In this document: positions 134 through 46,700 of the stretch, piece by piece
How the letters are laid out: each line of letters begins with the position of its first letter
Numbering within the stretch: position 1 is the first letter of the stretch
From: a bacterium
GTDB taxonomy: Bacteria; Bacteroidota; Ignavibacteria; UBA10030
Length of the DNA stretch: 64,000 nucleotides
Assembly: GCA_043803945.1 (NCBI GenBank)
Contig: JAZDJN010000101.1
Coordinates: 1 to 64,000 of the forward strand
Direction: 5' to 3'
Made by a program: the position numbers and the translations under genes
Notes under the pieces: generated by a model
The model's input: only the letters and a program-made list of their open reading frames with translations
Database searches by the model: none
What the model was told of the DNA's origin: nothing

Positions 134-250
134 CCCCTCTCCCGTTCACCTGCGCGCCATTTTTCGCGTTTTTTGCGTCCGCCCTGCCTGCGTGCCAAGC
201 ACTTTGGCAGGCAGTCGTCTTTTGGGTGGAGTGGCGGGCGAGAGAGGGAC
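134..250. repeat. CCCTCTCCCG..CGGGAGAGGG-type palindrome carrying three nested hairpin inserts
   Basis: Outer arms ccctctcccgttca / cgagagaggg; inserts at 149-238, 165-230 and 183-215; empty copy of the family at 16875-16898. Confidence 0.8.
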
Positions 251-473
251 CTACGATTTATCTGCGACAGGGTGAGAGGCAGGGAAATAAGGAAGTAAAA
301 AGTAGCAAGTATGAAGTACCAAGAAAACAGATTGGGGAATAATGAGGAGTTTTAGACAAGGCTTTGCTCTCATTCCCCTCTCTCGCTCACGAGAGAGGGA
401 CCTTCGTTCTCTATGCGACAGGGTGAGAGGCAGGAAAATGCGGAATTGGGAATGTGGAATGGGGGTAGAAGCC

Positions 474-1619
474 TTACCCTGTCAAATATTTTTTATAGTT
501 AAGAACCTCAAGATCCTTCGTAAAATCAACTCCTCTCCCTCTATAAAGGAGATATCCCTTTTGATTCTTCTTCTTAATCTGTGAAATTGCCTTCGTCATC
601 TCGGGGCGAAAAGTTTCCGATGATTTTATTTCGATATACTCTTGTTGAGATTTTCTGTCGATAATAAGGTCAACTTCAACTCCATTGCTGGTTCGACAAT
701 AGAAGAACTCTGAATCTGATTTGGTATGAAGCTCTTTTTTTACTATCTCTGAAACGATATAATTTTCAAACAGCGCCCCATACATTGGGCCTTTTTCAAA
801 CAATTCAGTGTTTCGAATACCTGTGAGGAACGATACCAGCCCTGTATCGAAGAAATACACTTTCGGACTTTTTATTACTCTCTTCCCGTAATTTTTATAA
901 TGCGGCGGCAGAAGGAAGAGGATATAAGATGCTTCGAGAACAGAGATCCATTTTCGAATCGTTGGAGTGGAAACACCAATATCCCTTCCAATATCGGACA
1001 TATTGAGTATCTGCGATGTTCGAGATGCGAGCAACTGAAGGCATCGGCGGAAATCCCGCATACTCCCGATCTCCCGCAAGCTGCGGACATCGCGCGTCAA
1101 ATAGGTATCCAGATACGAAGCATACCAATCAATCGATGCCTCATATTTTCTCGTCACAAGTTCAGGATATGCGCCTTTAAATATGGAATCATTGTGCAGT
1201 GCGTTTGGTATTTCAGAGTATTGAAATGGGAGAAGAGAAAGAAGGCCAATTCTGCCGGCCAGGCTTTCCGAGACATTCTTCATGAATGCAAATTGGCTTG
1301 AACCGGTCACGATGAATCTTCCATAGACATCCCGATGTTCATCGACAAGTTGTTTTATTGCATTGAATATCTCAGGGACTCTTTGGACCTCATCAAAAAT
1401 GACCTTCTCAGAATAGGTACGCATGAATCTTTTCGGGTCATCATGGAAGAGAGCGACGTTGTTCAAATCATCAAAGGACACATACCGGTAGGTGCCGCCA
1501 AAAAGCTTTTGCAGCATTGTAGACTTGCCGGATTGCCGTGGCCCAGTGATACCTACGACTGGAAATATCGTAAGGTATTTCTTTATCGTTGATTCCGCTA
1601 CACGCGGAATATATTTCAT
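474..1619 (-). CDS. AAA+ ATPase (AAA_14 + DUF4143 family)
   Basis: Walker A GPRQSGKST, Walker B IFDEVQ, TGSS, KSPKVYFFDTGL, C-terminal EVDLII..IEIK nuclease-like motif. Confidence 0.9.
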   Translation of the reverse strand: MKYIPRVAESTIKKYLTIFPVVGITGPRQSGKSTMLQKLFGGTYRYVSFDDLNNVALFHDDPKRFMRTYSEKVIFDEVQRVPEIFNAIKQLVDEHRDVYGRFIVTGSSQFAFMKNVSESLAGRIGLLSLLPFQYSEIPNALHNDSIFKGAYPELVTRKYEASIDWYASYLDTYLTRDVRSLREIGSMRDFRRCLQLLASRTSQILNMSDIGRDIGVSTPTIRKWISVLEASYILFLLPPHYKNYGKRVIKSPKVYFFDTGLVSFLTGIRNTELFEKGPMYGALFENYIVSEIVKKELHTKSDSEFFYCRTSNGVEVDLIIDRKSQQEYIEIKSSETFRPEMTKAISQIKKKNQKGYLLYRGRGVDFTKDLEVLNYKKYLTG

Positions 1620-2982
1620 AATACACCTTATGTAATATTAATCTTGCGGTTTAAATTTACATAACGTTGAATTCAGAAACAAGGGAGTTGGATGGAAAAT
1701 GGAGAATGTGGGAATATGAGAGTGTAGGAAAATAAGAATATGGAAATATTGAAATTGTGATTTGAGAATTGTGTTTTTGTCAGCGTTCAGTTGCCGCCGA
1801 TCATCATCTCACTTCTCTCCTATTACATCTCACGTATTGTTTTAGGGTCAGGAGCAGGACTTGTCCGCAGTCGTCGCGTTTTTTGCGTCTGCCCTGCCTG
1901 CGTGCCAAGCACTTCCGCCTACACTTCCACCAACGCCATGCTCCGGCGGATAAATCGTTTCGGCGGACAGGTTGGCAGGCAGGCGTCTTTTGGGTGGAGT
2001 GGCGGGCGGCAGAGGGACCTACGATTTATCTGCGACAGGGTGAGAGGCAGGAAAATGCGGACCACAGATAACACGGATTACATTGATTTCTCTGATGAAG
2101 GATGATGTGGACTAATGCCAGTGATCCCGTTATGCAAGCAGCATGGCGAAGGCGGGATGTTGTTAGGATTCTATGAAGTACTTTGTTGCCTTCCCGAACC
2201 CCCTCGTCCCGCAAGCGGGACACTCCCCCTTGGACCACTGATTACTGACCACTGATTACGCGGATTATGCTGATACCGCTGATGGAAGGGGGAGATGTTT
2301 TTTTCCATTACCTGCGACAGGGTGAGAAGCAGGGAAATGCAGAATTTGGAATTCATCCCGCTTGCCCCGATGTTGTTTATCGGGGAGCGAAGTCGAGGGA
2401 TGTTGAGTTAGGGTCGGGAGCTGGAGCTCCCTCCCAGATTTTAGTATGAAGTAACAAGAAAACAGATTGGGGAATAATGAGGAGTTTTAAACAAGGCTTT
2501 TTCACAATCCCCTCTTCCGCCCGCCAAAAATAGTGTCGGGCAGGTTCACGGGAGAGGGACATGCGCTCTCTATGCGACAGGGTGAGAGGCAGGAAAATGC
2601 GGAGTTGAAAAATCTTATTTCCGCATAGTAGATCCCCGACTGAAACATTCGGGGAACACTGAGAGTTGCATTCGAGGTACCCCTCTTCCGTTCACCTGCC
2701 CACCATTTTTCGCGTTTTTTGCGTCCGCCATCTTTTGGGTGGAGTGGCGGGCGAGAGAGGGACCTACGATTTATCTGCGACAGGGTGAGAGGCAGGAAAA
2801 TGCGGAATTGGGAATGTTGAATGCTGAATGTTCGTAAAAGTATATCGGAAGAGAATTGAATTCTTACGTGTAGAACTTCTCGCTTTTTTGGTCGGGAGCG
2901 GGAGCTCCCTCCCAGTACAGGGCGAGTCTAGCGACCTCCCAGCTTGAGGAGTTATATATAATTTGCATTCTGCAATTTGACA

Positions 2983-3075
2983 TTAGTCCAGGAAAATTCT
3001 TACGGCATTAACAAAAAGGCGAAGATCATCGAGTTCATTGAGAAATTCTTCCAGATGCTTTATTCTCTCACGCAT
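2983..3075 (-). pseudogene. Internally deleted DUF86/HepT-type HEPN toxin remnant (30 aa)
   Basis: Hand translation MRERIKHLEEFLNELDDLRLFVNAVRIFLD*; start overlaps the MNT stop; resembles HepT N- and C-termini with no RxxxxH motif. Confidence 0.65.
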
Positions 3076-3517
3076 TATGGAATGTCCCATAGGTACCCTG
3101 CGCTAACCTCTCAGAAAGAGTACGATCCAATAGGGAAAATAGCGGTGCCGCGTCAAGATACCTCAAGAGTGTCGTATGACGATATTCATACAAAATTTTC
3201 GTATCGCGGGTAAAGAGTGATATTCCACCAATGACTATCGTATATGCAAGACCCGGATCCCTCTTCTCAAGACCATTGAGTACAATGATATCGACATCGC
3301 ATGCAAGAATTTTCTCCAGTTGTGATGTCAGCATTCCAAGCTCCATGAGCCCCGGACTTGCAGTGAAGTATATCGCAATGTCAACATCACTCATTTCCCC
3401 TTGAAGACCACTTGCATAAGAACCAAAGAGGTAAGCGAACAAGATTTCTTCCTTTTTGATGAGGAACTCAAGTAGTTCATGTTGATGGAGAAGTAGTATT
3501 GGAGGTTGACAGGGCAT
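3068..3517 (-). CDS. MNT (MntA-type) nucleotidyltransferase antitoxin
   Basis: YLFGS-x10-DVD motif, VDIIVLN. Confidence 0.88.
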   Translation of the reverse strand: MPCQPPILLLHQHELLEFLIKKEEILFAYLFGSYASGLQGEMSDVDIAIYFTASPGLMELGMLTSQLEKILACDVDIIVLNGLEKRDPGLAYTIVIGGISLFTRDTKILYEYRHTTLLRYLDAAPLFSLLDRTLSERLAQGTYGTFHNA

Positions 3518-3530
3518 TAAGTATTAAGTA

Positions 3531-3690
3531 TAAAGTAGAAAGTTTAAGGTTACAGGTTTAAGGTTACAGGTTTAAGGTTACAGGTTTAAGGTTACAGGTT
3601 TAAGGTTTAAGGTTTATGGATATATACAGTTTACAGCTGACAGATTACAGATAACAGACTACAGACAGCAGACTACAGATGACCGAATAT
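3531..3690. repeat. Period-7 repeat spacer (AGGTTTA/AGGTTAC then ACAGA-based heptamers)
   Basis: Tandem heptamers; homologous tract at 4498-4630 and related tract at 6335-6430. Confidence 0.85.
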
Positions 3691-3727
3691 AGAAAACAAA
3701 ATCTAACATACGAAATACGTCAAAATA

Positions 3728-4159
3728 TTATTTCGGATTTTCATTGGATTGAGGAATAATGCTTTCACAGAGTCTAATGATATCCTCAAGAGCCTTTAAT
3801 GCTGTATCAAAGTCGTTTTGTCCATAGGCATCCATGGGCACAAGGTCTGGAAGTCCGTTAGGGTAACGAGTCGGTATATATAATTTATCAAGCAAGAGAG
3901 CTTGCAATCGAACCGCTTCTAATGATTCACGGATATTGTCATTTTTCAGATCAATAATGAGATTAAATATTGAATGTCCCCAGGGATCTTCTCCGAGCGA
4001 AAACCACACAGCCTTCATCATCTTCTCTCCAGACTGCTGGCAATGAAAACAGGCCTGAGCGTATTTCTTGTGAGCTGCCAACACGGTAGCAGCGGCTAAG
4101 TCATCCTTCGCCTGAAGCACCCAGCGTTGTGCAATTCTACCTGCCTTCTCAAGACTCAT
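3728..4159 (-). CDS. HEPN domain protein
   Basis: ACFHCQQSGEK..WGHS..LDKLYIPTRYPN signature; coupled to upstream MNT. Confidence 0.88.
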   Translation of the reverse strand: MSLEKAGRIAQRWVLQAKDDLAAATVLAAHKKYAQACFHCQQSGEKMMKAVWFSLGEDPWGHSIFNLIIDLKNDNIRESLEAVRLQALLLDKLYIPTRYPNGLPDLVPMDAYGQNDFDTALKALEDIIRLCESIIPQSNENPK

Positions 4160-4472
4160 ATAGTACTCTCCCCTCTTTTAAGAGTCGGAGGATAAAATGA
4201 TTTTCTTCCGAGCACATCCGCTCCAGCTCAGTCGGAGTATAGACAAGTACATCGAGCGCCCTTCCCCGGATACGATCCGTTAATAACAATAAGGGCTGAT
4301 CCAGCCGATCAAGAAATCGCAGCGAGGTGTTCTGTACGAATGCAACATCCACGTCACTCCTCTTTGTATCTGTACCGCGAGCAAGTGAGCCAAAAAGGAT
4401 GGCTTTCTGTGCTCCAATAAGAGCCGCAACTTCTTTTATTGCGAGCTCGATTTCAGCGTAGGTGGAAGACAT
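4149..4472 (-). CDS. MNT nucleotidyltransferase
   Basis: LFGS-x10-DVD, LDVLVYTP. Confidence 0.88.
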   Translation of the reverse strand: MSSTYAEIELAIKEVAALIGAQKAILFGSLARGTDTKRSDVDVAFVQNTSLRFLDRLDQPLLLLTDRIRGRALDVLVYTPTELERMCSEENHFILRLLKEGRVLYES

Positions 4473-4497
4473 GGGTTTAAAAAAAGTAAAAAGGATT

Positions 4498-4630
4498 AAG
4501 TAGAAAGTTCAAGGTTTAAGGTTTAAGGTTAAAAGTTTCAGGTTTATGGACATATACAGTTTACAGATGACAGAATGCAGATGACAGACTACAGATTACA
4601 GATAATAGACTACAGATGGCAGATAACAGA
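4498..4630. repeat. Period-7 repeat spacer, direct homolog of 3531-3690
   Basis: aagtagaaag..ggtttatgga.atatacagtttacag.tgacaga shared in the same order. Confidence 0.85.
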
Positions 4631-4705
4631 ATCTATCCAGTAACCATTTAACCGCAACAGAGCACAGTCAAGAATATATTATATGGAATAGAGCTTACTA
4701 TTCCA

Positions 4706-5143
4706 CTATTTAGCGTTCTCTTTCTTCACCAACCATTGGGCAATGATTCTTATATATTCATGAAAAATATGCAGCTCTGTTTGTAAAATCTGGAGAACCC
4801 TGTGGTCATCAACTCCCCAGTAGCGATGGACTAAGACATTTCGGAAGCGGGCGAGTTCACCCAGTTTCTTAGCAAATGGATTTTCAAGCACTCCGCCTTC
4901 CTGCATGACTTCAAAACAATGGCTATAGCTTTCGGGAGTTGTTTTTAGTGTATGAACTGCAAGATGATTACAAATATCGATACATGCCTCTATCAATACA
5001 ACAAACTGATATTTTATCGTACTCATCTTTTCAATACTCTGTAACATCGTTTCGTCATCCAGCTTAGCGTACGATTCCAGGACTCCCAATGCTTTATTGG
5101 CTTCTCCCAGCAGCGTCTGAATTCTCTCTCGGTTGATACTCAT
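4706..5143 (-). CDS. DUF86/HepT-type HEPN ribonuclease toxin
   Basis: RNVLVHRY = RX4HXY motif; overlaps upstream MNT. Confidence 0.9.
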   Translation of the reverse strand: MSINRERIQTLLGEANKALGVLESYAKLDDETMLQSIEKMSTIKYQFVVLIEACIDICNHLAVHTLKTTPESYSHCFEVMQEGGVLENPFAKKLGELARFRNVLVHRYWGVDDHRVLQILQTELHIFHEYIRIIAQWLVKKENAK

Positions 5144-5547
5144 TGGCGCGCTGCAAGCTCTTCAATAAATGCTTTTCGTTTTGGTGCAAAATCGAAGTAT
5201 CGCGACCAGGCAGCGGTGATGAATTCTTCATGCCATTCCGGATCACGATTGAGAATCAGGATACCACGTGAAGCATGATGCACGAAATGGTCCGGAGCAT
5301 AATTCAATACTGATATATCAACGGAGAAATTCAATACTTTTTCGCAGCGTTGAGCCAAAGAGAATTGATAAAGTGGATTCTCTTCCAGCACCGATTGCTT
5401 TGCAAAGATTGCCAGGTCGATATCGTGATACCGTTCCTGCTCGATGAACGATCCGAAAAGATAACAGAAGATGATATCGCTTTCGTTGTTCAGAAATTCG
5501 ATCAAAGGAACGATTAGAGACTGTTTTTCAGTAGATAGATCGGGCAT
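5140..5547 (-). CDS. MNT nucleotidyltransferase antitoxin
   Basis: YLFGS-x8-DID, VDISVLN. Confidence 0.85.
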   Translation of the reverse strand: MPDLSTEKQSLIVPLIEFLNNESDIIFCYLFGSFIEQERYHDIDLAIFAKQSVLEENPLYQFSLAQRCEKVLNFSVDISVLNYAPDHFVHHASRGILILNRDPEWHEEFITAAWSRYFDFAPKRKAFIEELAARQ

Positions 5548-5603
5548 AGCTTAATTAAAGTTCACAAAAGTTCTTTGAAAGTTATAAAGATAAAGATTCT
5601 CCA

Positions 5604-5999
5604 TCATGATGTCAGTTTAGCATTCGGAATTGTCTGGTTTAGAAGCAAGCGAAAGAGCGAACAATATTTCCTCTTGACTCGTTTAAATACTTCACGCGAG
5701 ATCTTTTTATCATACAGATGGACTGTGAGATTTCTATCGTCAATAAGATGGAGGATCGTGTCCTCGAGAGTAACCAATCCAGATCTAAATGCTTCTTTGA
5801 AGCATTCCCTGGGGGTTTTTACTAGAATACCTTGCTCCTCGAAATAATATTTAAGAAATTTCCAGCTTAATTCAAATGTAAATTCGAATCGTTGAAGCAC
5901 ACCATCAATCTCAAGATCGGTTTTTGCCACTTTTACAGCTTCCTCAAGTGATCGCAACGCTTTAACGAATTGAGTCCTTGCAAGGTCAACGCGCTTCAT
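5604..5999 (-). CDS. HI0074-family HEPN protein
   Basis: LQRFEFTFELSWK and RNLTVHLY motifs; start placed at ATG 5999, overlapping the MNT end. Confidence 0.88.
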   Translation of the reverse strand: MKRVDLARTQFVKALRSLEEAVKVAKTDLEIDGVLQRFEFTFELSWKFLKYYFEEQGILVKTPRECFKEAFRSGLVTLEDTILHLIDDRNLTVHLYDKKISREVFKRVKRKYCSLFRLLLNQTIPNAKLTS

Positions 6000-6309
6000 A
6001 AATAAGCTTGCCTTCCTTAAGAATTTCCTTCCGGAACTTTTTATGAATTTTATGAGTCTCGACGACATCGATGCTCAGAAGAGTCCGTATGCTTTCATCC
6101 ATTTCGTTTCTGAAAGGATCGTTTTTCCTTGCACCTTCCAATGCCAGATCGATATCCGATGTTCTTGCAAAATTTCCGCGAGCTCTAGAACCAAAAAGAT
6201 AGATACGTTTGGGTTGCTTCCGTAATACAAGAATCCGTATAATTTCCTTAAGAATTTCTTTGCGAAGCCCATACTCAGCGTCGATAGTACTATCCATACC
6301 GGTGTACAA
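5986..6309 (-). CDS. MNT nucleotidyltransferase
   Basis: YLFGSRARG..SDIDLA. Confidence 0.88.
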   Translation of the reverse strand: MYTGMDSTIDAEYGLRKEILKEIIRILVLRKQPKRIYLFGSRARGNFARTSDIDLALEGARKNDPFRNEMDESIRTLLSIDVVETHKIHKKFRKEILKEGKLIYEAR

Positions 6310-6681
6310 TTGTGATGAATTGGATATTTGATGTATAGAAAACAGACGACAGATTACAGATAACAGACAACAGAATCTAGAAGATAATATTCAGAAAACA
6401 GACGACAGAATACAGATAAAAAAATCTATACAGAAAAGATCAAACGGTAAACAGTTAACGTTAACAATTTACATTAAATTGTGAAAATATGAAGAATAAA
6501 AGACTGTCTGCGGTAAACGGTCTATGGTTAACTTTTATTTTATGTTTCTTTGAACACTTTCTGTGCTAAATATAACAAATTTTTCCCAAATAGGATTTTT
6601 TTTTATAGGAATGTGCTGGGAGGATGGAATAATTAAATGTGTTCACTAAGAGGTTCTTTGGAATTTAAAAAAGAAAACTCA

Positions 6682-7343
6682 GTGATTCCAAAGTGACTTT
6701 GTTTGGAATCTACTATGAGGATTTTGGGGTCCGTTTATTGGATCCCCGACAAACGCATTCGGGGATCACTATTGGGGTTTGTAGTTCGTATATCGGAAAT
6801 AACCGTCTCCCACCTGCGTTAACCTTCGGCGAACTTCGGCAGGCAAGCCGTTTACCGTCTCTCGTCTACCTTTCTCCTTTGGTCACGCTCATTGGTCGGG
6901 AGCTGGAGCTCCCTCCCAGCATAGGGGTTTAGGATCTACTATGAGGAGCTATTCTTTTCCGCTTAGTAGATCCCCGACTACCACATTCGGGGAACACCTT
7001 TGGGTCTTGGGAGAAAATAAAGAAAAGAATAGTGTTCCCAAAGTGTTGTAGTTTGTGATCTACTATGAGGGACTATTCCTATTCGCCTGGGAGCCCCCCT
7101 CTTCCGTTCACCTGCCCGCCATTTTTCGCGCTTTTTGCGTCCGCCGGTTTTCGTGTTTTATACGTCCGCCGGTTTTTTGGCGGATTGGCGGGAGCTCCTC
7201 GCCACCAGCCCCTGCCTGCGCTGCCAAGCACTTCCGCCTACACTTCGTTTCGGCGGACAGGTCGGCAGACAGGCGCTATGCGTCCCGCCTGAACGGCGTA
7301 GTCGGGCAGGTCTGGCGGGGAGGCGAGTCTAGCGACCTCCCAG
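6682..7343. repeat. Mosaic block of several palindromic repeat families
   Basis: Contains GATCCCCGA-N7-TCGGGG, GGTCGGGAGCTGGAGCTCCCTCCCAG and GGCGAGTCTAGCGACCTCCCAG units plus nested hairpin inserts found elsewhere in the window. Confidence 0.8.
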
Positions 7344-7500
7344 CATTAAAAGAATGGAGTAACGAAGAAAAAAGTTGGAAATATCTAGTGTCTCGATTCA
7401 CTATCATCTTGAATAAGTCCGCGAGCCTAAAACGCTCCATGACATCCATGTAGAGATATGGAAACGAATTAGTTTTTCAAGGTATCTTTGAGACTCGACA

Positions 7501-7800
7501 CTAGCGAGGTGAATGGAGTAGTTGCATAGTTTTACGTATCACAGCTTCATCGACAAGACGATTAGTAACGAATTTATGCAAAATACTGGAGATCAGCGTT
7601 TGATATGGGATACCTTCCTCGAGAGATCGTTTCTTTAGTTGTTCAAGAACTGACTCCGAAAGCCGAATATTCACATTTCGTGTCTTACGTATCCGTTCTA
7701 AAAGGCCTTCGATCTTCGCTCGCTCCTTGTTCGAGACTGGCCGGTAAGAGTCGGCAGATTTCTCGATTTCCTGTTCGTATTTATCAAGCTTTGTTTTCAT
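7501..7800 (-). CDS. BrnA/CopG-like ribbon-helix-helix antitoxin
   Basis: VNIRLS..GIPYQTLISSILHKF; overlaps upstream BrnT-like gene. Confidence 0.85.
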   Translation of the reverse strand: MKTKLDKYEQEIEKSADSYRPVSNKERAKIEGLLERIRKTRNVNIRLSESVLEQLKKRSLEEGIPYQTLISSILHKFVTNRLVDEAVIRKTMQLLHSPR

Positions 7801-8083
7801 TGTTCTTTTGTCCGTACTTTTTATGAAATTTTCGACTTGGAAACGCAGTTTTTAATACAACGTTGTTTTCGTTATCTAAGACGAAGGGCACAGCGTGGAT
7901 ATATCCATTGATCGGTAAGACAAAAATTCTTTGGCCACAGCGTTTTGGGTGTTCCACTATGTCAATATATTTTCTTTCCAAGATCAATAAGGTGATTTCT
8001 TCAAATGAAATTCCTCGTTGTTTCTTGAGCTTCTTGTTTTTCTCATCGTCCCAGATGATGTTCATAAAACAAGTTACTACCAT
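7784..8083 (-). CDS. BrnT-family toxin
   Basis: WDDEKNKKLKKQRGISFEE..LKTAFPSRK. Confidence 0.85.
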   Translation of the reverse strand: MVVTCFMNIIWDDEKNKKLKKQRGISFEEITLLILERKYIDIVEHPKRCGQRIFVLPINGYIHAVPFVLDNENNVVLKTAFPSRKFHKKYGQKNNENKA

Positions 8084-9108
8084 TAGTATACAATGTCAAT
8101 TAGTGTCGACGGCCTATCACACGCGGCACCACGAGAAATGTGGAATGAGGAATTGTGGATTCGGAATGTTTGTAGAAGAAATTTGAAACAAGGCAGGGAA
8201 ATGCGGAAGTATGGAAATATGAGAATAAGGGAATAGGAAAATGTGGGAATTGTTATTTGAGATTCGTGCTTTTTATCTGCAACCTGCTTTCATTTGTGAC
8301 CACTGATTACGCTGATTACACTGATTACGTTGATGGAAGGGGGAGATATTATTTCGCGTTATGAAGCATTCCCCCTCTTCCGTTCACCTGCCCGCCATTT
8401 TTCGCGCTTTTTGCGTCCGCCATCTTTTGGGTGGAGTGGCGGGCGGGAGAGGAACCTGCTGATCACTGATTACGCGGATTACGCGGAATGTAATGGTGAA
8501 AGGGTGAGAGGCAGGTAAAGAAGGAAGTATGGAAATATGGGAATGAGGGAATTGAAAAGAGGAATTCATCCCGCCTGCCCCGACTTATCCCGATGTATTG
8601 TATCGGGATGCTGTATATCGGCTTGTCCCGACACCTTTTGTCGGGAGGAGCGTAGTCGAGGGATGTTGAATTAGGGTCGGGAGCTGGAGCTCCCTCCCAG
8701 ATTTGAGTATGCATTTTCAGCACGAAAACTCAGAAGATGTCTAAAATCCATACTTGACCCCTTCGCCCTAAAGGGCACTCCCCCTTGGACCACTGATTAC
8801 TGACCACTGATTACGCGGATTATGCTGATACCGCTGATGGAAGGGGGAGATGTTTTTTTCCATTACCTGCGGCAGGGTGAGGGGCAGGTAAAGAAGGAAG
8901 TATGGAAATATGGGAATGAGGGAATTGAAAAGAGGAATTCATCCCGCCTGCCCCGACTTATCCCGACTTGTCCCGATGCTTTTTGTCGGGATGAGCGAAG
9001 TCGAGGGATGGGGAAATAGCTTAATCTTAGTAATTGAAGGTTGATTTTAATTAAGGTATATTTGCATGGTAACAAACGAATATCCCAAAAGTATTCCATC
9101 ATTACAGA

Positions 9109-9185
9109 GTGTCAACATCGAGGATAATATTTCGTGTCCATGCCCTGCAAAGATTGTTTGATTTGAGAGGAGGAAAGTGCAATGA
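9109..9185 (+). pseudogene. Internally deleted DUF4258-type toxin remnant
   Basis: GTG-STSRIIFRVHALQRLF joined out of frame to FERRKVQ*, whose TGA overlaps the ATG of the YgiT-type gene. Confidence 0.6.
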
Positions 9186-9409
9186 AGTGTGTTATTTGCA
9201 AACATGGGGAGACGAAACCAGGAATGATTGTTGTGACTCTTGTCAGAAATTCCACAACACTCGTTTATAAAGATGTACCAGCCGAGGTATGTGAAAATTG
9301 CGGCGAAGAATATATTGACGAAACGGTAAGTTCCACCTTGGCTGCAACCGCAGATAACGCGATTCGATCAGGAGTTGAGGTTGATGTAAGGCAATATATT
9401 GCTGCATAA
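9182..9409 (+). CDS. YgiT-type zinc-finger (MqsA-like) antitoxin
   Basis: MKCVICK..VPAEVCENCGEEY. Confidence 0.88.
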   Translation: MKCVICKHGETKPGMIVVTLVRNSTTLVYKDVPAEVCENCGEEYIDETVSSTLAATADNAIRSGVEVDVRQYIAA

Positions 9410-9966
9410 TTCAGTTCAAGGTAATTGTTGAAATTGTGATTTGGGCGTTTAGCTGCAATATGCCTTCTGCATTCCGATCTCTGCAACCTTTCCTCTTCTC
9501 GGTTATCTCGACTCTCTTGCTTTTAATCGAACCCCCTCCCGCCAAACAGATCGGCGGGCGGGCGCCCTAAAGGGCACTCCCCCTTGGACCACTGATTACT
9601 GACCACTGATTACTGACCACTGATTACGCGGATTACGCTGATGGAAGGGGGAGATGTTTTTTTCCATTACCTGCGACAGGGTGAGAGGCAAGGAAATGAG
9701 GAAGTAAAAAGTAGCAAGTATGAAGTAACAAGAAAACAGATTGGGGAATAATGAGGAGTTTTAAACAAGGCTTTCTCACAATCCCCTCTTCCGTTCACGG
9801 AGAGGGACCTGCGCTCTCTATGCGACAGGGTGAGTGTTAGTAAAACGTGACCGTGCTATCAAATGTTACTATTAATGGGCTGCAACTCAATAGAAGGGTT
9901 TAAATTCAATCAGAACACATTGTTATTGCTTTCATTCAAATTGAGTCGTATTCTTCCATAGAATCG

Positions 9967-10272
9967 ATGGGAGTTGATGTGCAATACGATTTTGAATGGG
10001 ACACTCAAAAGACAAAATCTAACTTAAAAAAGCATAAAGTAAGTTTCGAACGGGCGACAGAGATTTTTCTTGATCCATTTATGCTTTCTCTTTTCGATCG
10101 TAAGCACAGCCAGTTCGAAGAACGATGGATTTCTATCGGAAAGGATCATGACAACATTGCGTTGGTTGTTGTTCACACGTTCAGAGAGATCGATGCTGCT
10201 CATTCAACAATTAGAATCATCTCAGCCCGTCGAGCGACAAAAAATGAAATTAAGCAATATTCTGCAAGGTGA
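9967..10272 (+). CDS. BrnT-family toxin
   Basis: FEWDTQK..NLKKHKVSFE..EERW..IRIISARRAT. Confidence 0.9.
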   Translation: MGVDVQYDFEWDTQKTKSNLKKHKVSFERATEIFLDPFMLSLFDRKHSQFEERWISIGKDHDNIALVVVHTFREIDAAHSTIRIISARRATKNEIKQYSAR

Positions 10273-10478
10273 GTCTCATGAAAAAAGAATATAATTTCTC
10301 AAAGGGAATTCGTGGAAAGTTTTTTCGACCTCATGTCCGATTGAACCTGCCGATATACCTTGATGATGATGTTGCTCATTTTATTAAAGATTTCGCAAAA
10401 CGAAAAAAAATTGATCCCCAGACTATGGTCAACAAGCTCTTGCGAAGCAACAAAGAGATCATTCAGGCAATTCAATAG
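10269..10478 (+). CDS. BrnA-like antitoxin
   Basis: KEYNFSKGIRGKF..IYLDDDV..QTMVN; overlaps the BrnT stop. Confidence 0.8.
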   Translation: MSLMKKEYNFSKGIRGKFFRPHVRLNLPIYLDDDVAHFIKDFAKRKKIDPQTMVNKLLRSNKEIIQAIQ

Positions 10479-11252
10479 GTTTCTCACAATGAATTGATGA
10501 TTCGCTAGCAGCTGATGACGGCGTACCATTAAGGCAAATAATGATAAAAACCGCAATCGATTGGGATTAGTTTAGAATTATTATAGTCCATTCGCTCAAT
10601 CCAATATTCTCACGTTCCCAAATTCCAATATTCTACCATTCTCTCGTTCCAACATTCTTTCATTCCCACATTCTCCCGCAGAGTGAGCGGCAAGGAAATT
10701 CGGAATGGAAAATATGATTTCACCTTGTGGATCCCCCCCGAAAAAAAACATCCCGATATAAAGCATCCCGATATAAAGCATCGGGACAAGTCGGGACAAG
10801 TCGGGGCAAGCCAACAGAAACACTCGATAAAATACATGGGGGCTAAACGTACTGGGAACACTGAGGAGTTTTCAGCGAGGCTTCTCTCTCACTTCCCTCT
10901 CTCGTCCGCGAGAGAGGGAAGTGCGCTCTCTATGCGACAGGGTGAGAGGCAAGGAAATGCGGAAGTATGGAAATATGAGAATAAGGGAATAGGAAAATGT
11001 GGGAATTGTTATTTGAGATTTGTGTTTTTGTCAGCTTTCAGTCGCCGCCGCTCATCTTCTCTCTTTTCTCATCTTTCATCTCACATATTGTTATAGGTCG
11101 GGAGCTGGAGCTCCTCGCCACGGGCCCAACTGCGTTCGCCTTCGGCCTGCCCCGTCTCACGGGGCGAACTTCCGCCAAAAAGATGGCGGACAGGTCGTCG
11201 GGCAAGCGAGTCTAGCGACCTCCCAGAGTAAAACCTCCAAGCGTGAAGAACA

Positions 11253-11522
11253 CTAGCGGAACCAGAAGAAGAAGAAAACAACGACGCCAATGAAGAGGAA
11301 AAGCCAAAAAGGATGCTTGAGGAGAACAAATATACTGGAGAAGGTAAACTCGATGATTTTTGTCCCGCTGCCATGGAATTTTAATCCGCGCCAGCGGCAG
11401 TCGTGGCAGCGATAGTAGTGTGAAAGGAAAATGGATCTAATGAATCCCTCGAAAATATTATGATGATGAGATTTGTAGATTTGATCGCTGGAACATTTGG
11501 GACAGTACATAATAGGTATCAA
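11253..11522 (-). CDS. Small hypothetical Zn-ribbon membrane protein
   Basis: CPKC..CHDC pair and hydrophobic C-terminus. Confidence 0.5.
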   Translation of the reverse strand: MIPIMYCPKCSSDQIYKSHHHNIFEGFIRSIFLSHYYRCHDCRWRGLKFHGSGTKIIEFTFSSIFVLLKHPFWLFLFIGVVVFFFFWFR

Positions 11523-11852
11523 GTAAAAATGAAAAGGGAAAATACAAAATTAAAAAGAGTAAGAAGTAAAAATAAAAAGGAAAAAGGAAAAAAAATCTGT
11601 ATTCCAAATTCAACATTCAGAATTCTGAATTCCTTCCCCCCAATCTCCAATCGTCAATCGGAAATCGTCAATCTTCAAAGTCCTTCGATCTTCATTCGTC
11701 AATCGGAAATCGTCAATCTCTCCTTCTAACCCACTCTTCTCGTCTTACCCTCTTACACTCTCATCTCCTCATCACCCACTCTCCCATTCTCCACTTCTGC
11801 CACTCTCCTTGCCACACACTCGTACCTCTTACACTCTCATCTCTCCCCCTTT

Positions 11853-30925: not shown

Positions 30926-31085
30926 TGGGTGTCACGGTCCCCCGCAAAAAACACGGGGCGGGCATACCGTGACACTTCACATCTCGATGATTTCACTTGA
31001 TGCGTCACGAAATCCCTGCCTGCGGCAGGCAGGCTGCCCGCCTCATTTGGATCTTTTGTGGCAGGCGGGGGTTCGTGACGCCCAT
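30926..31085. repeat. Inverted pair of REP-like palindromes with nested hairpin inserts
   Basis: TGGGTGTCACGGT..ACCGTGACAC and GCGTCACGAA..TTCGTGACGCCCA; the second carries CCTG-type inserts. Confidence 0.7.
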
Positions 31086-37996: not shown

Positions 37997-37998
37997 GC

Positions 37999-40567: not shown

Positions 40568-43500
40568 TCATACTGTAAAATAGCGTGCTTCCGGATGATG
40601 CACAATTATAGCTGATGTGGATTGTTCAGGTTCCATCTGATACCCTTCTGTCAGCGAGACCTCTATCCGCTCTGGTGTAAGCAACTGAAAAAGTTTAACC
40701 TGATCTTCGAGTTTCGGGCATGCCGGGTAACCGAAACTATACCGCGATCCCTGATAGCCCTGACTGAACAGTTTTTTAATTTCCTTTGCATCACGATCGG
40801 CAACGCCCAGTTCTACGCGGATACGCTTATGCCAATACTCCGCCAGCGCCTCCGTAGTTTCAACGCTTAACCCATGGAAATACAGATAATCCTTGTAATT
40901 ATTCTGGGCATATAAATGAGCAGAGTGTTCGCTCGCCTTCCTTCCAACAGTGACAACGTGGCAGGCAAGAACATCGTACCTCCCTGAATCCGTGGAAGCA
41001 AAGAAGTCGGCAATGCAGAGGCGTTTGCCTGACGATTGCCTAGGGAATGCAAAGCGAATAGGCGCTGAGAGATTCTTATCCGGGATTGAGGGATCAAAGC
41101 CGGGCAAAGGTTGATACACAATCAGATCATCACCAGATGATTGACAAGGGAAGTAACCATAGACTACCCTGGGTTCAAGCAAGTACTGTTGTTGCGCCTG
41201 CGCTTTCAGGAATTCGAAATCGGGATAGACCTGTTTCTTCAGAAGCTGCTGATAAGCCTCTGCACTCATCGTTCCCCGGACAACTCTCCATTGCCCCCGG
41301 ATCAGTGCTACTTCATTGATGAAGGGATAGAGCTCCTGAAGATCGAGATTGGTGACGACCTTCGATCCCCAGAATGGAGGCTGCGGTATCTGATGATCAT
41401 GCCGGATTGTGATGGTGTGACTTTGATAAGTTAAAGAGATCTCAGGCTCCTGCTGAAGGCTCATTGCAATTTTTGCTTCTGATCCTGTCAGCGTCTCTTC
41501 ATCCACAGATTCCTGGAGTGCGGCAGCATCACCCTGCCCGGATTTAATCTGTTCGAGTAATCGGAGGCCATCAAAGGCGTCATTTGCATAGTAGACTCTT
41601 CCCTTATAGAGCGGGCGTAGATCAGATTCGACATAGCGGCGTGTGAGGGCAGCACCGCCGAGAATGACCGGTATGGTCAGGCCCCTCTCATTCATCACTT
41701 CCAGATTTTCCTTCATGATGAGTGTCGATTTGACTAAGAGTCCGCTCATACCGATTGCATCGGCTCGACGCTCCTGAGCTGCATGCAACATTGTTTCGAC
41801 AGTGCATTTAATGCCAAGGTTGATGACCGTGTAGCCATTATTCGTCAAGATGATATCGACCAAATTCTTTCCGATGTCATGCACATCGCCCTTAACCGTC
41901 GCAAGTACCAACACTCCCTTGCCGCTCCCTTCAGTTTTTTCCATAAAAGTCTCCAGATGAGCAACGGCCGTTTTCATGGCTTCCGCAGCCTGCAGGACAA
42001 ATGGCAGTTGCATCTGTCCCGAACCGAAGAGTTCGCCCACCCTCTTCATACCCCCAAGGAGGATGGTATTGATGATTTCGAGGGGTGTGTATGTTTTCAA
42101 TGCCTCATCAAGATCACGCTGGATACCCGCCTTGTTGCCATCGATAATGCGATTTGTTAATCGTTCTTCCAATGGAGCAACTGCCGATGCTTCTTGATAC
42201 TCCACTTCCTGCTTTTGTACTGCACCATACGTGATGAGTTCAGTCAGCGGATCGTAGACCAGCGTCCGATTTTCTTGTTCTCCTTCATAGCGGCGCTTAT
42301 CGTAAATAAGATCGCTGCAGATCGACCGCAGCTGTTCATCGAGTTTGAACAGGGGAAGTATCTTGGATGCATGGACGATCGCCATATCGAGCCCGGCTTC
42401 CACCGCGTAATGCAGAAAGACACTATTCACGGCATGCCGCGCACGCGGTGCCAATCCGAAGGAGATGTTACTGACACCCAGCAGCGTTTGGACTTCGGGG
42501 AATTCCTGTTTGACTCTCCGGATAGCCTCGATCGTATCAGCTCCGGCATGGCGGAACTCCTCATCACCGGAGCCTAGGGTGAAGGTGAGCATATCGAAAA
42601 TCAAGTCATGCGGCCGCATCCCGAATCGGCGCACGGCGAGATCATAGATTCTCCGTGCAACCTCAAGTTTTTTCTCGATCGTTTTCGCCATTCCCTGCTC
42701 ATCGATTACGAGCGCAATCACCGCAGCGCCATAGCGTTTGCAGAGATGGACAATTCGCTCCAGCCGTGCTTCCCCGTCTTCAAGATTAATCGAATTGACG
42801 ATAGCTTTTCCACTCACGCGCTGGAGCGCCTCTTCGAGGACATTCACCTCAGTAGAATCGATGACTAACGGGATGGAGACCTGCGTATTAAATCGCGGAA
42901 CCAGTTCCCTCACATCCGCTGCCTCGTTGCGGCCAACGTAAGCGACACAGAGATCCACCATATGCGCCTGTTCTTTTGCCTGTTCACGCCCCATCGCCAC
43001 CATGGACTCCCAATCCTCACGGGCAAGAAGATCGCGGAACAGCTTGCTGCCATTGGCGTTCGTTCTCTCACCCACGAGCGTAGGAGCCGGTTTAGTTCTA
43101 TAGGGAACCGCCTGATAGAGGCTGGATGCCGCTGGGACAAACTCGATCGAGCGCGGCCTTGGAGCAAGATTCCCAACAGCATCGACAAGCTTTTTAAGGT
43201 GGCTCTTCGTCGTTCCGCAGCATCCGCCGACCGCCTGAACGCCAAGATCTTTTACGAAGTGGGAGAGATACTCAACAAATTCCTCAGGAGAGAGGTGGTA
43301 ATGCGCTTGTCCTCCAACATTTTCCGGAAGACCGGCATTGGGCATGACGAACAATGGCATTGGGCTGGAGGAAGCAAGTGCGTGGATATGCTCCGACATC
43401 TCCTTTGGCCCTGTGGCGCAATTCATGCCAAACAGATCGATATCGAACGGTTCAAGCGAAGTCAAGGCTGCAATGATTTCAGTCCCAAGCAACATGGTCC

Positions 43501-44104
43501 CGGTCGATTCAATCGTGACGGAGACACTCACCGGTACTTTCTTCTTGAGATCGCGAAAGCAATCGGTGATTCCGCAAAGTGCGGCTTTTGCCTGAAGAAT
43601 ATCCTGGCAGGTTTCCACCGAAAGCAGATCAACACCGCCTTCGAGCAAACCTTTCGCCTGAACATAATAGGAATTCAGCATATCGGGAAACGCGATGTGT
43701 CCTAATGTGGGCAGCTTCGTTGTAGGCCCGAGTGACCCTGCCACAAACCGCTGATGGCCTGACTGGGAAAAATCCGCCGCAACGCGCCTGGCAATTTGTG
43801 CTGCCTTGTAGTTCAGTTCATACGCACGATCCTGGAGGTTATATTCGGCGAGCACAATGGACGCACCGCCAAAGGTGTCAGTCTCGATAACATCGCATCC
43901 CGCGTCAAGGTAATCGGCATGGACATTTTCGACAGCGCTCGGTTTGGCAATGACGAGGTACTCATTGCACCCGTTGTATTCTTCTCCTCCAAAATCATCG
44001 GCCGTTAAGCCCTGGCTTTGCAAATGTGTTCCAGTTGCACCGTCGAACACCATGATTTTTTCTTTGAGAACATCGAGAAATGATTTTTCCAACGCGAATC
44101 TCAT
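40568..44104 (-). CDS. metH: Cobalamin-dependent methionine synthase
   Basis: DGATGT, NCATG, GGCCG, GERTNANGS, DVHDIGKNLV, RYSFGYPACP; start placed at ATG 44104. Confidence 0.96.
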   Translation of the reverse strand: MRFALEKSFLDVLKEKIMVFDGATGTHLQSQGLTADDFGGEEYNGCNEYLVIAKPSAVENVHADYLDAGCDVIETDTFGGASIVLAEYNLQDRAYELNYKAAQIARRVAADFSQSGHQRFVAGSLGPTTKLPTLGHIAFPDMLNSYYVQAKGLLEGGVDLLSVETCQDILQAKAALCGITDCFRDLKKKVPVSVSVTIESTGTMLLGTEIIAALTSLEPFDIDLFGMNCATGPKEMSEHIHALASSSPMPLFVMPNAGLPENVGGQAHYHLSPEEFVEYLSHFVKDLGVQAVGGCCGTTKSHLKKLVDAVGNLAPRPRSIEFVPAASSLYQAVPYRTKPAPTLVGERTNANGSKLFRDLLAREDWESMVAMGREQAKEQAHMVDLCVAYVGRNEAADVRELVPRFNTQVSIPLVIDSTEVNVLEEALQRVSGKAIVNSINLEDGEARLERIVHLCKRYGAAVIALVIDEQGMAKTIEKKLEVARRIYDLAVRRFGMRPHDLIFDMLTFTLGSGDEEFRHAGADTIEAIRRVKQEFPEVQTLLGVSNISFGLAPRARHAVNSVFLHYAVEAGLDMAIVHASKILPLFKLDEQLRSICSDLIYDKRRYEGEQENRTLVYDPLTELITYGAVQKQEVEYQEASAVAPLEERLTNRIIDGNKAGIQRDLDEALKTYTPLEIINTILLGGMKRVGELFGSGQMQLPFVLQAAEAMKTAVAHLETFMEKTEGSGKGVLVLATVKGDVHDIGKNLVDIILTNNGYTVINLGIKCTVETMLHAAQERRADAIGMSGLLVKSTLIMKENLEVMNERGLTIPVILGGAALTRRYVESDLRPLYKGRVYYANDAFDGLRLLEQIKSGQGDAAALQESVDEETLTGSEAKIAMSLQQEPEISLTYQSHTITIRHDHQIPQPPFWGSKVVTNLDLQELYPFINEVALIRGQWRVVRGTMSAEAYQQLLKKQVYPDFEFLKAQAQQQYLLEPRVVYGYFPCQSSGDDLIVYQPLPGFDPSIPDKNLSAPIRFAFPRQSSGKRLCIADFFASTDSGRYDVLACHVVTVGRKASEHSAHLYAQNNYKDYLYFHGLSVETTEALAEYWHKRIRVELGVADRDAKEIKKLFSQGYQGSRYSFGYPACPKLEDQVKLFQLLTPERIEVSLTEGYQMEPEQSTSAIIVHHPEARYFTV

Positions 44105-44138
44105 CCTTCTGATTGATCGATTATGCTCCGAGCACCCT

Positions 44139-44170
44139 AAAACAAAAAACCCCAACTCTCAGCGCTGGGG
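44139..44170 (-). terminator. Intrinsic terminator in the metH leader
   Basis: CCCCAGC-loop-GTTGGGG followed by TTTTTTGTTTT on the minus strand. Confidence 0.8.
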
Positions 44171-44189
44171 GGAATAGCTCTTCATCCAA

Positions 44190-44241
44190 CGCTTTAGCAC
44201 TTTGTCATGTGGCTGCAAGCTGTCTTTCAAATCACCACAGT
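44190..44241 (-). ncRNA. SAM-II class riboswitch
   Basis: Minus strand GTGGTGATTTG..GCTTGCAGCCAC..ACAAAGTGCTAAAG matches the SAM-II (SAM_alpha) consensus; upstream of metH. Confidence 0.85.
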
Positions 44242-44391
44242 GTAACATAAGAAAGAATGGTACGAACTGCAAGGCGTTGGTTCTGCTGAATTATTGAGTG
44301 AACACCACGTCATGAAGCGAAGGACATCCATGGCGAGAGGAAAAGCTTAGACAGAAGGAGCAATGGACTGATGCGGCAGAGAACCGACTCC

Positions 44392-45423: not shown

Positions 45424-45520
45424 CAGAGAATTCCTTCATAGTATTGCGGAAAAAGTATCTAAAATTGGAGGCAAACTCAAGGGAGGGGGGAATTCTGACT
45501 TGCCACCTCACATTCCATAA

Positions 45521-45890
45521 GTTCCCCGAGTGTCCGACTCGATTCAATGAATCGAGTCGAGACCTCGACGGATTCGGGGCTTCTGTCGGCTTGCCCCGAC
45601 CTGTCCCGACTTGTCCCGATGCTTTATATCGGGATGCTTTATATCGGGATGCTTTTTATCGGGGGGATCTACTATGCACTACCTTTTCGCAGATCCCAAA
45701 CAAAGACATTTTGGGATCACTGGCTCTTTTCTATCTGCTACCCAATACTCGATGAGTTCCCCGAGTGCCTGCCCCGAATTCTTTTTTCGGGGCTTCTGTC
45801 GGCTTGCCCCGACCTGTCCCGACTTGTCCCGACGTTTTATGTCGGGATGATCTATATCGGGATGCTTTTTATCGGGGGGATCTATCATGC
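45521..45890. repeat. Array of alternating inverted palindromes left of GIY-YIG
   Basis: GTTCCCCGAGTG..TCGG..GGATCT alternating with AGATCCCAAACAAAGACATTTTGGGATC; self-nested inserts. Confidence 0.85.
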
Positions 45891-46005
45891 GGATCAATGG
45901 TATAATTATGCTAACAACTCATGCCTTGAAATTAACTATCCCGTTTCATACTATTCACCACCAATCATTCGATATCCTCATCGCACCGAAAATCCAACAG
46001 GGGGT

Positions 46006-46301
46006 ATGCTATCAGCAAAGGATACTTCTACATTGTTTCAAACTACACAAGCACAACTCTCTATTGCGGATCCACTGTTGATCTTGACTCAAGGATCCGC
46101 CAGCACCGATCCGGTGAGGGAAGCAAATTCTCAGCAAAATATAACTGCAAATATCTTTTATACTATGAAGAATATGATACTCTCGAAGAGGCCCTCCTAC
46201 GCGAAAAGAGGGTAAAGCGCTGGAACCGTGAGTGGAAAATGCGCTTGATCAAATCGATCAATCCAGATTTAGAAGACCTTTGGGAAAAAGAATGGCTATA
46301 G
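46006..46301 (+). pseudogene. GIY-YIG nuclease family protein, 5' frameshift
   Basis: KGYFYIVSN..LYCGST.DL..RIRQH..YYEEY..ALLREKRVKRWNREWK..NPDLEDL*; ATG 46006 is one base out of frame (GCAAAGGA). Confidence 0.85.
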
Positions 46302-46310
46302 CACAAACAA

Positions 46311-46700
46311 GTGTTCCCCGAGTGCCTTAGTCGGGGATCTATCATGCAGTGTAGTTCATTGGCCATTTGGCAGATCCCAAACAAAGACACTTTGGGATCG
46401 CTGGCTCTTTTCTATCTACTACCCAACACTCGATGAGTTCCCCGAGCGCCTTAGTCGGGGATCTATCATGCAGTGGAGTTCATTGGCCATTTGACAGATC
46501 CCAAACAAAGACATTTTGGGATCGCTGGCTCTTTTCTATCTGCTACCCAACACTCGATGAGTTCCCCGAGTGCCTGCCCCGAATTCTTTTTCGAGGCTTC
46601 TGTCGGCTTGCCCCGACCTGTCCCGACTTGTCCCGACGTTTTATATCGGGATGCTTTATATCGGGATGCTTTGTATCGGGGGGATCTATCATGCAGTGTA
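46311..46700. repeat. Array of alternating inverted palindromes right of GIY-YIG
   Basis: Same units as 45521-45890; ~80-bp core repeated at 45690, 46371 and 46495. Confidence 0.85.

Follow-up and report, generated by a model that had tools for sequence, protein, structure and literature searches.

Tagged mini-hairpins nested within other palindromic repeats of an Ignavibacteria genome: probable mobile modules with a possible link to small GIY-YIG nucleases

The intergenic spacers in a 64,000-nt stretch of bacterial DNA (contig JAZDJN010000101.1, positions 1 to 64,000; G000:C101:1-64000, hereafter the window) are made up of palindromic repeats, mostly across its toxin-antitoxin-rich first 27 kb. 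The stretch belongs to an Ignavibacteria genome, G000, of 5.54 Mb in 118 contigs with 46.5% GC. Among its repeats are mini-hairpins with a 5' CYTG (CCTG or CTTG) tag, some of which lie inside other palindromic repeats. A sequence-only reading of the window had proposed that these units are non-autonomous micro-elements, and we found this to be well founded, as the units have precise ends, produce no target-site duplication and recur in unrelated contexts. We consider it probable that they are true insertions of mobile modules into hairpins. Our overall reading, to which we assign a probability of roughly 40%, is that the tagged mini-hairpins are non-autonomous mobile DNA, most likely driven by GIY-YIG nucleases and not by an HUH transposase. 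By what means bacteria accumulate so many short palindromes is a long-standing question, and the dozens of clean empty/filled pairs, the defined insertion points and the few candidate nucleases in G000 make it testable with oligonucleotides.

To describe the units, all perfect hairpins of G000 with a stem of at least 6 bp were tabulated (n = 8258), and a strict catalogue of 192 units was drawn from this table; a related function yielded 258 units, which were used for densities. A looser finder (stem of at least 5 bp, loop of at most 40 nt) was dropped as noisy, since it returned 937 matches as compared with 235-970 for control tags. Single units were 19-37 nt long, with 24 nt the commonest length (34/192), and consisted of the 5' CYTG tag, a YCC-rich perfect stem, mostly of 6 bp, and a loop that opened with G in 128 of the 192. 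The prototypes were a 19/20-nt palindrome (CCTGCCTG-N3/4-CAGGCAGG), a 24-nt unit (CYTGYCCGCC-N8-GGCGGR) and a 36/37-nt unit (CCTGCCCGCC-N16/17-GGCAGGCGGG). CCTG was the most frequent 4-nt 5' flank among the 8258 hairpins (195 occurrences, 3.0x background), CTTG occurred 115 times (1.7x), and the stems so tagged began with YCC. The pattern CYTGYCCRCC-N6-20-GGYGGR was present in 46 + 51 = 97 copies in G000, as opposed to 1 + 1 for a reversed, narrower pattern (stem CCGCC, gap 6-10). CYTG was found on the 5' side alone, with no conserved 3' motif, and one subfamily carried a CCAG tag. Each unit contained a single hairpin, and the sole flank preference was a purine preceding the tag (159/192). Between unit families the stem sequences varied while pairing was kept.

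The sequence-only reading had described three empty/filled pairs and a stepwise series in the window, all of which aligned base for base. They are listed below; REP denotes a repetitive extragenic palindrome, and a caret marks the insertion point.

15181-15207 (+): pair 1, empty REP host CTCGGCGA^GACGCCTTCG, of a type that also flanks a RAYT gene at G000:C72
18066-18098 (+): pair 1, inserted 33-nt unit with tag CCTG and stem CCCGAC, in the filled REP host at 18058-18116
46311-46340 (+): pair 2, empty hairpin GTTCCCCGA-GTGCCTTAG-TCGGGGATCT; a second empty copy starts near 46437
33883-33911 (+): pair 2, 29-nt unit inserted at TCGG^GGATCT, in the filled site 33859-33917; the host family also brackets a GIY-YIG reading frame
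16875-16898 (+): pair 3, empty host hairpin CCCTCTTCCG-CTCA-CGGGAGAGGG
2681-2761 (+): pair 3, filled CCCTCTTCCG host holding a nested 57-nt block, namely a CYTG unit whose loop holds an untagged 33-nt double hairpin
2412-2437 (+): series 4, empty host hairpin GGGAGC-TGGA-GCTCCC
19424-19447 (+): series 4, inserted 24-nt unit CTTGTCCGCCGTCTTTTTGGCGGA occupying the loop of a GGGAGC host; the filled site spans 19411-19459
20951-21030 (+): series 4, double-filled site in which the 24-nt unit known from 19424 has its own loop filled by the untagged 33-nt double hairpin (20978-21010)

In pair 2 the junction TCGG^GGATCT is common to both sites and the host loops have diverged. In series 4, excising 20978-21010 in silico gave back the 19424 unit plus its flanks exactly. 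A four-level nest that had been reported at 134-250 was likewise present on inspection, and further nests were found at other positions.

134-250 (+): four-level nest, in which a CCCTCTCCCG...CGGGAGAGGG host holds a CYTG unit of the 24-nt type, which holds an untagged double hairpin, which holds a long CCTGCCTGC...GCAGGCAG unit (core 183-211)
1855-2030 (+): deeper nest of similar make-up, with an inverted 58-nt composite unit at about 1915-1972 that itself holds a 29-nt insert
10736-10810 (-): triple self-nest of CYTG+YCCCGA units, with mirror-order covariation of the arms
14391-14452 (+): two-level nest, a minus-strand 33-nt unit (14397-14429) within a 29-nt unit
31014-31069 (+): two-level nest, the 19-nt palindrome (31015-31033) within a 37-nt CCTGCCCGCC...GGCAGGCGGG unit
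45590-45877 (+): composite in two copies upstream of the GIY-YIG frame; triple nests span 45590-45664 and 45803-45877, and a host loop contains a solo unit at 45768-45792
46573-46683 (+): filled copy of the 46311-type hairpin, with a unit in its loop and a triple nest at TCGG^GG, resolved by four rounds of excision

In the triple nests the outer arms (CCCCGA/TCGGGG) and the inner arms (TCCCGA/TCGGGA) covary in mirror order, which is expected from insertion and not from two independent tandem duplications. Four of the window's triple nests derive from one composite as copies, and hence are not independent events.

Events of this kind were sought across G000 with a split 12-mer scan, in which pairs of 12-mers that abut at one site lie 12-120 nt apart at another. 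Empty sites can be detected solely in repeated hosts, and the scan therefore returned a biased sample of empty/filled events. It found 372 events, 233 of which were 15-70 nt long with a microhomology of at most 5 nt. The tag, which had been proposed as the hallmark of the units, stood at the start of the insert in 84 of these 233 events; it does not describe the rest, such as the untagged 33-nt insert at 20978-21010, and this double hairpin accounted for five events across G000. After deduplication, 58 tagged events comprising 51 distinct inserts were retained. The claim that no flanking duplication is present was upheld in that none of fixed length was found: microhomologies of 0, 1, 2, 3 and 4 nt were counted at 12, 32, 11, 2 and 1 of these 58 events, respectively (0-2 nt in 55/58). 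Iterative excision in silico, which had been suggested as a check, was applied to 31 units of the window over four rounds, with controls displaced by +6 or -6 nt. For 16 of the 31 the resulting 24-mer junction recurred elsewhere in G000 with at most 2 mismatches, as against 0/31 for the controls in each direction (0/62 together); at up to 3 mismatches, 24/31 were restored, as against 4 and 6 for the controls.

Such pairs could also arise with no dedicated enzyme, by template switching, by gene conversion between copies or by precise hairpin loss on folded DNA, in which case composites would spread as blocks and deletion would be as likely as insertion. The common descent of the four triple nests agrees with this, and so does the orientation of inserts, which was constant relative to a given host, as would be expected if filled hosts had multiplied; palindromes are, moreover, hot spots for deletion. 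The exact ends and the short microhomologies are difficult to reconcile with this explanation; slippage requires flanking direct repeats. The same holds for the finding of one unit in unrelated flanks (the 19-nt palindrome was found in at least 7 different flanks) and of different units at one host point. We regard an enzyme-free origin as improbable.

The view that hairpin structure is targeted over any one sequence was supported, in that loops and stem-loop junctions were preferred. A perfect host stem of at least 5 bp spanned the junction in 23 of 57 events, compared with 17.5% of displaced junctions and 7.6% of 5000 random sites. Similarly, 54 of the 192 catalogued units were enclosed by a host stem of 6 bp or more, compared with 80/768 nearby controls and 132/3000 random positions, and 20 of the 192 lay in a host of their own kind. 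Several hot spots had received different inserts, namely TCGG^GGATCT (at least 6 inserts), the GGGAGC loop and CGGCGA^GACG; varied inserts at one host point speak for repeated independent events at preferred points. Units were hosted by REPs of the type that flanks a RAYT gene at G000:C72, by an NTS-like hairpin (GTCATTCCCGCGA^AAGCGGGAATCCAG), by members of the hairpin family around the GIY-YIG frame, by a dead tRNA fragment and by other units. No conserved target tetranucleotide was found beside the inserts.

Among the genomes searched, G000 was the sole member of its genus, and the best metagenome match to the neighbouring aminotransferase was 74% identical; a look-up of sequencing runs for 14000-22000 of the window listed none. 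A census of the class was made with the pattern of a single subfamily in a sample of 401 genomes. The pattern was present in 243 of them, with reversed-pattern controls at 0-3 in most, and in 22/22 other genomes of the family of G000, typically at 10-49 copies each. Copy numbers reached 245 in one genome (G143) and were zero in 22/22 genomes of another family (f15). The exact 24-mer of the unit at 19424 was also present in genomes of another family of the class. Nested and tandem copies were observed in G143 and G370, including tandem triplets in the latter, and units were carried by two single-contig genomes (G385, G191). In the same phylum outside the class the pattern was mostly at background, with few exceptions (e.g., G528, 17 copies as opposed to 4 for the control). 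The distribution bears on whether the nests could be an artefact of metagenome assembly, as might be feared for a genome in 118 contigs. The same families, together with nests and tandem copies, turn up in hundreds of genomes whose assemblies are independent of one another, and the units stand within long contigs amid intact genes. This wide spread, together with the single-contig genomes, excludes an assembly artefact for practical purposes, and its probability is negligible.

One member is distributed far more widely. The 20-nt palindrome CCTGCCTGCCGGCAGGCAGG was found letter for letter in at least 118 stretches from a collection that has one genome per species, for which about 1 chance match was estimated, and in 35 viral-contig stretches. 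Its hosts include Patescibacteria, Omnitrophota, Bacteroidota, Planctomycetota, proteobacteria, Thermodesulfovibrionales, Chloroflexi and others. At the cross-phylum and viral loci the palindrome was located in hairpin loops, inside itself and in the D-arms of tRNAs. Local repair errors hardly explain identity over 20 nt across phyla and viral contigs, which is a further point against an enzyme-free origin.

Different families of the class share the 24-mer without change, and different phyla likewise share the 20-mer. This would also be expected if the units were selected functional sites, such as binding or cutting sites of a host protein or RNA stabilizers, with mobility being incidental, and the covariation that preserves stem pairing is in keeping with this. 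We found, however, no orientation bias of the units relative to the direction of flanking genes (21 vs 23; 20 vs 17), to GC skew or to the gene-strand majority, and a search of Rfam found no family covering the repeats. Congeners also differ widely in copy number, with 245, 25 and 5 copies in three genomes of genus g90, which is typical of selfish repeats. Selected function as the primary explanation is quite improbable.

Three observations concern the 20-nt palindrome itself. On two viral contigs it lies within a tRNA-Met gene (L307 8616-8635, L330 2284-2303), and on a Thermodesulfobacteriota contig (L216 3861-3880) it lies within a 713-aa open reading frame (ORF) containing a GIY-YIG domain. 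In addition, the anticodon arm of tRNA-Asp (L277 1282-1357, L276 1375-1450) reads CCTGCCTG..., its first eight bases being those of the palindrome; this match may be a coincidence or a hint at the origin of the palindrome.

The sequence-only reading had pointed to HUH enzymes as the movers of the units, and this part was not supported. On such a model, REP-like units would be moved in trans as single-stranded DNA, without target duplication, by Y1 enzymes (RAYT, IS200/IS605 TnpA) or by a Y2 enzyme of the IS91 type. RAYTs account for GTAG-tagged REPs, and HUH enzymes provide both cleavage and joining. G000 itself has 12 matches to PF01797 (Y1_Tnp), most of them RAYT-like genes 180-207 aa long, as well as a single Y2 gene of the IS91 family, at G000:C65, with a 20-mer unit about 230 nt downstream. 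A tetranucleotide tag next to a GC hairpin is also the architecture of tagged REPs (Di Nocera et al. 2013, PMC3733652), and the RAYT loci of G000 are richer in units than the genome as a whole (1.02 vs 0.47 per 10 kb). The borders of the genes tell otherwise. Each of the 12 Y1 loci in G000 had its own distinct hairpins and no CYTG units at its borders, the classic GTAG hairpin occurring solely around the Y1 gene at G000:C56. None of 14 Y1 loci in G143, G370, G316, G023 and G100 had CYTG units at its borders, and these also possessed hairpins of their own. The RAYT loci of unit-rich relatives showed no enrichment (0.69 per 10 kb), and, unlike the situation in IS200/IS605, no conserved target tetranucleotide adjoins the inserts. 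As for Y2, PF04986 was found in 8/401 genomes of the class and in 0/22 other genomes of the family, although all 22 have units, and no units were found in 29 kb of Y2 loci. The IS91 Y2 transposase was accordingly ruled out as a driver by its distribution (8/401 genomes vs 243/401 with units), and HUH-mediated movement in general appears unlikely. The single Y2 gene of G000, within G000:C65:24241-27828 (L068), encodes 400 aa, stands behind a frameshifted tyrosine recombinase gene and is inserted into an array of RAYT-flanking 62-nt REPs.

The sequence-only reading had also seen no evident cognate enzyme in the window. This needs qualifying, since a GIY-YIG reading frame is bracketed there by nest-loaded hairpin arrays, but it lacks a canonical start codon.

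46017-46241 (+): reading frame of a small, single-domain GIY-YIG nuclease (PF01541, 57.5 bits), with no in-frame ATG, GTG or TTG start

Given the absence of a canonical start codon, the frame may be decayed. A 222-aa ORF with an ATG start at 45547-46215 (+) is a spurious frame across the hairpin repeats, and the GIY-YIG frame lies in another phase; nests of this kind generate spurious ORFs and can break assemblies.

Elsewhere in G000, 18 matches to PF01541 were found, about 12 of them being genes of 83-121 aa, each with hairpin repeats of its own. An 89-aa GIY-YIG gene at G000:C109 adjoins tRNA-Asp and a dead tRNA copy that holds a unit: a CYTG unit (L276 1287-1316) occupies the D-loop of a dead 5' tRNA copy just upstream of the intact tRNA-Asp and the nuclease gene, the 3' end of which overlaps another, hairpin-interrupted copy of the tRNA 3' half. 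The closest solved relatives of the 89-aa nuclease were UPF0213 BH0048 (E 8e-12) and the structure-specific nuclease SLX1, and a search of NCBIfam with it found no family above cut-off. Relatives of the gene were detected in 33/41 genomes of the family. The 30 best loci with such a relative (29 from the same family plus that of G000; 80.9 kb) were compared, and 27 of the 30 adjoin a tRNA. All 13 strict units in these loci lay within 260 nt of the gene; 9/30 loci carried a unit, and in 4 the gene was bracketed on both sides. Unit density was 1.6 per 10 kb at the tRNA-lodged GIY-YIG loci, compared with 0.69 at the RAYT loci of unit-rich relatives, 0.47 across G000 and 0.08 in generic contigs of relatives (502 kb); at Y2 loci it was 0. 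In the duplicated tRNA 3' fragments the units were at one fixed point, and one locus contained two different units. A WWE3 genome (L193) and a viral contig (L337) likewise combine a dead tRNA copy with the 20-mer and a GIY-YIG ORF. Small GIY-YIG genes were also seen in tandem arrays of near-identical copies, with about 15 copies at a period of about 299 nt in G016:C2:365024-369127 and 7 copies at a period of about 305 nt in G004:C9:1492190-1494262.

Matches to GIY-YIG were tallied across the class at no more than 13 scored matches per genome, one unpublished genome (G391), on which no conclusion depends, being included. Within the family they correlated modestly with unit counts (rho 0.46, n 23).

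Several points weigh against the nucleases as drivers. The correlation rests on match counts of at most 13 and on related genomes, and many GIY-YIG-rich genomes of the class (e.g., genera g66 and g160) contain the searched pattern in few copies or not at all, which makes the GIY-YIG profile non-specific. Strict units were found at 2 of the 18 PF01541 loci of G000, and a GIY-YIG gene at 5/80 cross-phylum and 1/35 viral loci of the 20-mer. The G000 genes bracketed by units, judged mostly by eye, were toxin-antitoxin and ordinary genes, with no nuclease or recombinase among them. About two thirds of the units have no obvious host hairpin. The link between units and GIY-YIG genes is positional, and dead tRNA copies and nuclease-linked hairpins could be neutral, hairpin-rich targets at which units could pile up unaided. 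Finally, GIY-YIG nucleases cut DNA and, to our knowledge, are not known to join it, so that the joining step needs another source. Taking both sides into account, we hold only tentatively, at somewhat below even odds, that small GIY-YIG nucleases drive the units.

If they do, the units would enter DNA while it is transiently single-stranded and folded. The driver would be small, single-domain GIY-YIG nucleases with units at the borders of their cassettes, of which the tRNA-lodged ones are UPF0213/Slx1-like; the Ssn-like ones would be candidates as well. A structure-specific enzyme of this kind would nick the folded DNA where stem and loop meet, or close by, and the unit would be copied or ligated into the nick; as a single strand would be cut, no target duplication would result. 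The solo units would stand to the cassette as satellites, much as solo NTS copies do to ssnA. Precise, duplication-free insertion into folded DNA by small GIY-YIG nucleases would, if true, constitute a new mobility mechanism and possibly a tool for engineering single-stranded DNA. The boldest form of this reading is doubtful: that the CYTG mini-hairpins are a third great class of tagged bacterial palindromes and the smallest known horizontally spreading mobile DNA, pasted into folded single-stranded hairpins of REPs, nuclease sites, tRNA genes and the units themselves by a hitherto unrecognised, tRNA-lodged Slx1/UPF0213-like GIY-YIG route with no transposase.

The remaining units listed for the window occur singly, in an adjacent pair or as the core of a longer unit.

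2361-2385 (+): solo 25-nt unit with tag CTTG and stem CCCCGAT
7233-7261 (-): solo 29-nt unit with tag CCTG and stem TCCGCC
8622-8646 (+): solo 25-nt unit with tag CTTG and stem TCCCGAC; sister copy at 8967-8991
11146-11164 (+) and 11171-11194 (-): adjacent pair of units
19113-19141 (+): 29-nt core of a long CCTGCCTGC...GCAGGCAGG unit; another short unit at 19272-19289
20810-20842 (+): 33-nt unit with tag CTTG and stem CCCGC

Other features were noted during the analysis. Between the small toxin-antitoxin genes (HEPN/MNT, HepT, BrnT) at 134-19340 there are about 10 copies of a clustered module, CCCCTCTCCCG-loop-CGGGAGAGGGAC followed by ...CGACAGGGTGAG..., the layout of which resembles a gene-cassette array. 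The 12-mer CGACAGGGTGAG has 13 copies genome-wide, several of them seen by eye in the window. A match to the SAM_alpha riboswitch (Rfam, 37.6 bits, gathering score 36) was found at 44173-44248 (-), directly upstream of a gene for a 1195-aa methionine synthase (40568-44155); SAM_alpha is named for alpha-proteobacteria, and its presence here was therefore unexpected. A single ORF of 3984 aa occupies 49888-61842 (-) and is followed by a 1034-aa ORF at 46775-49879 with no Pfam match. By-products of the indel scan in G000 included CRISPR-like, regular repeat-spacer arrays with periods of 65-66 nt on several contigs, tandem units of a 30-nt double hairpin (TGCGCC..GGCGCA TCAGCC..GGCTGA) and the 62-nt REP units around the RAYT gene at G000:C65.

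When compared with known systems, the units differ from classical miniature inverted-repeat transposable elements, which have terminal inverted repeats and need a target duplication of fixed length, in their short and variable microhomology. Miniature elements of the IS200/IS605 type insert 3' of a fixed target tetra- or pentanucleotide and have subterminal hairpins at both ends, whereas the units show only a purine at position -1 and contain a single hairpin. IS91 elements insert at a CTTG/GTTC target with no duplication. The units share with them the absence of duplication and a CTTG beside a hairpin-bearing end; they differ in that the tag travels with the unit, and the Y2 gene is single-copy in G000 and was found in far fewer genomes of the class than the units.

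The nearest behavioural analogue is provided by the SDR repeats of Nostocaceae, for which we know of no enzyme that has ever been identified. SDR4-6 (Elhai et al. 2008, Genome Res 18:1484) are reported to be mobile and nested, each module being 21-27 nt long and inserting at precise points of other repeats. Precise, duplication-free insertion into repeats was found for the units as well, and their commonest length, 24 nt, is similar. According to papers that cite the SDR work, SDR5 inserts between fixed bases of HIP1 (PMC5861425, PMC4390886), and HIP1-rich cyanobacteria other than Nostocaceae yielded no SDR-like repeat (PMC5861425). The units described here belong to another phylum, have sequences that appear different, and come with a candidate enzyme link.

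REPs are sorted into GTAG and CGTC superfamilies in Di Nocera et al. 2013 (PMC3733652), where REPs 'inserted within' other palindromes are described for three species and empty targets for one. According to that paper and to Bertels & Rainey 2011 (PMC3116915), REPs and REPINs resemble the units in their palindromic form, in their length of 20-40 bp, in the unpaired tetranucleotide that tags one end and in having many families per genome. The units differ from them in carrying a third tag, CYTG and not GTAG, in flanking no RAYT, in being catalogued as singlets and not as inverted doublets, in recursion to at least four levels and in the identity of one member across phyla.

The Ssn nucleases, a GIY-YIG family tied to CGTC-type NTS/SRM hairpins in an insertion sequence-like layout, NTS-ssnA-NTS, are assigned to CDD family cd10448, both according to Chenal et al. 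2025 (PMC11893778). The present system is similar in having a small, single-domain GIY-YIG gene bracketed by a hairpin repeat that also has many solo copies, and in a hairpin with short, non-palindromic flanking motifs, folded single-stranded DNA being recognised there and presumably here. The repeat indeed lies beside a small GIY-YIG gene in the nine unit-bearing loci mentioned above, and the frame in the window is bracketed by loaded hairpins. G000 also possesses a GIY-YIG gene, at G000:C112, surrounded by a textbook-like SRM (GTCATTCCCACGCAAGTGGGAATCCAG). The units themselves depart from this arrangement: an SRM has CGTC...CYRG, whereas the units have CYTG on one side only, and the best-linked nuclease here is nearest to UPF0213/Slx1 and tRNA-lodged, whereas Ssn, in the same paper, is cd10448. 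Precise insertion, self-nesting and lodging at tRNAs are not described for Ssn in the portion of PMC11893778 at hand. In the literature searched, the string of the 20-mer was not found, nor was any bacterial description of nesting CYTG units; the supplementary repeat tables of PMC11893778 and PMC3733652, which lie outside that literature, might list CYTG-type repeats. The units stand apart from known systems by their tag, by how deeply and regularly they nest, by the identity of one member across phyla and by the link to tRNA-lodged, UPF0213/Slx1-like nucleases.

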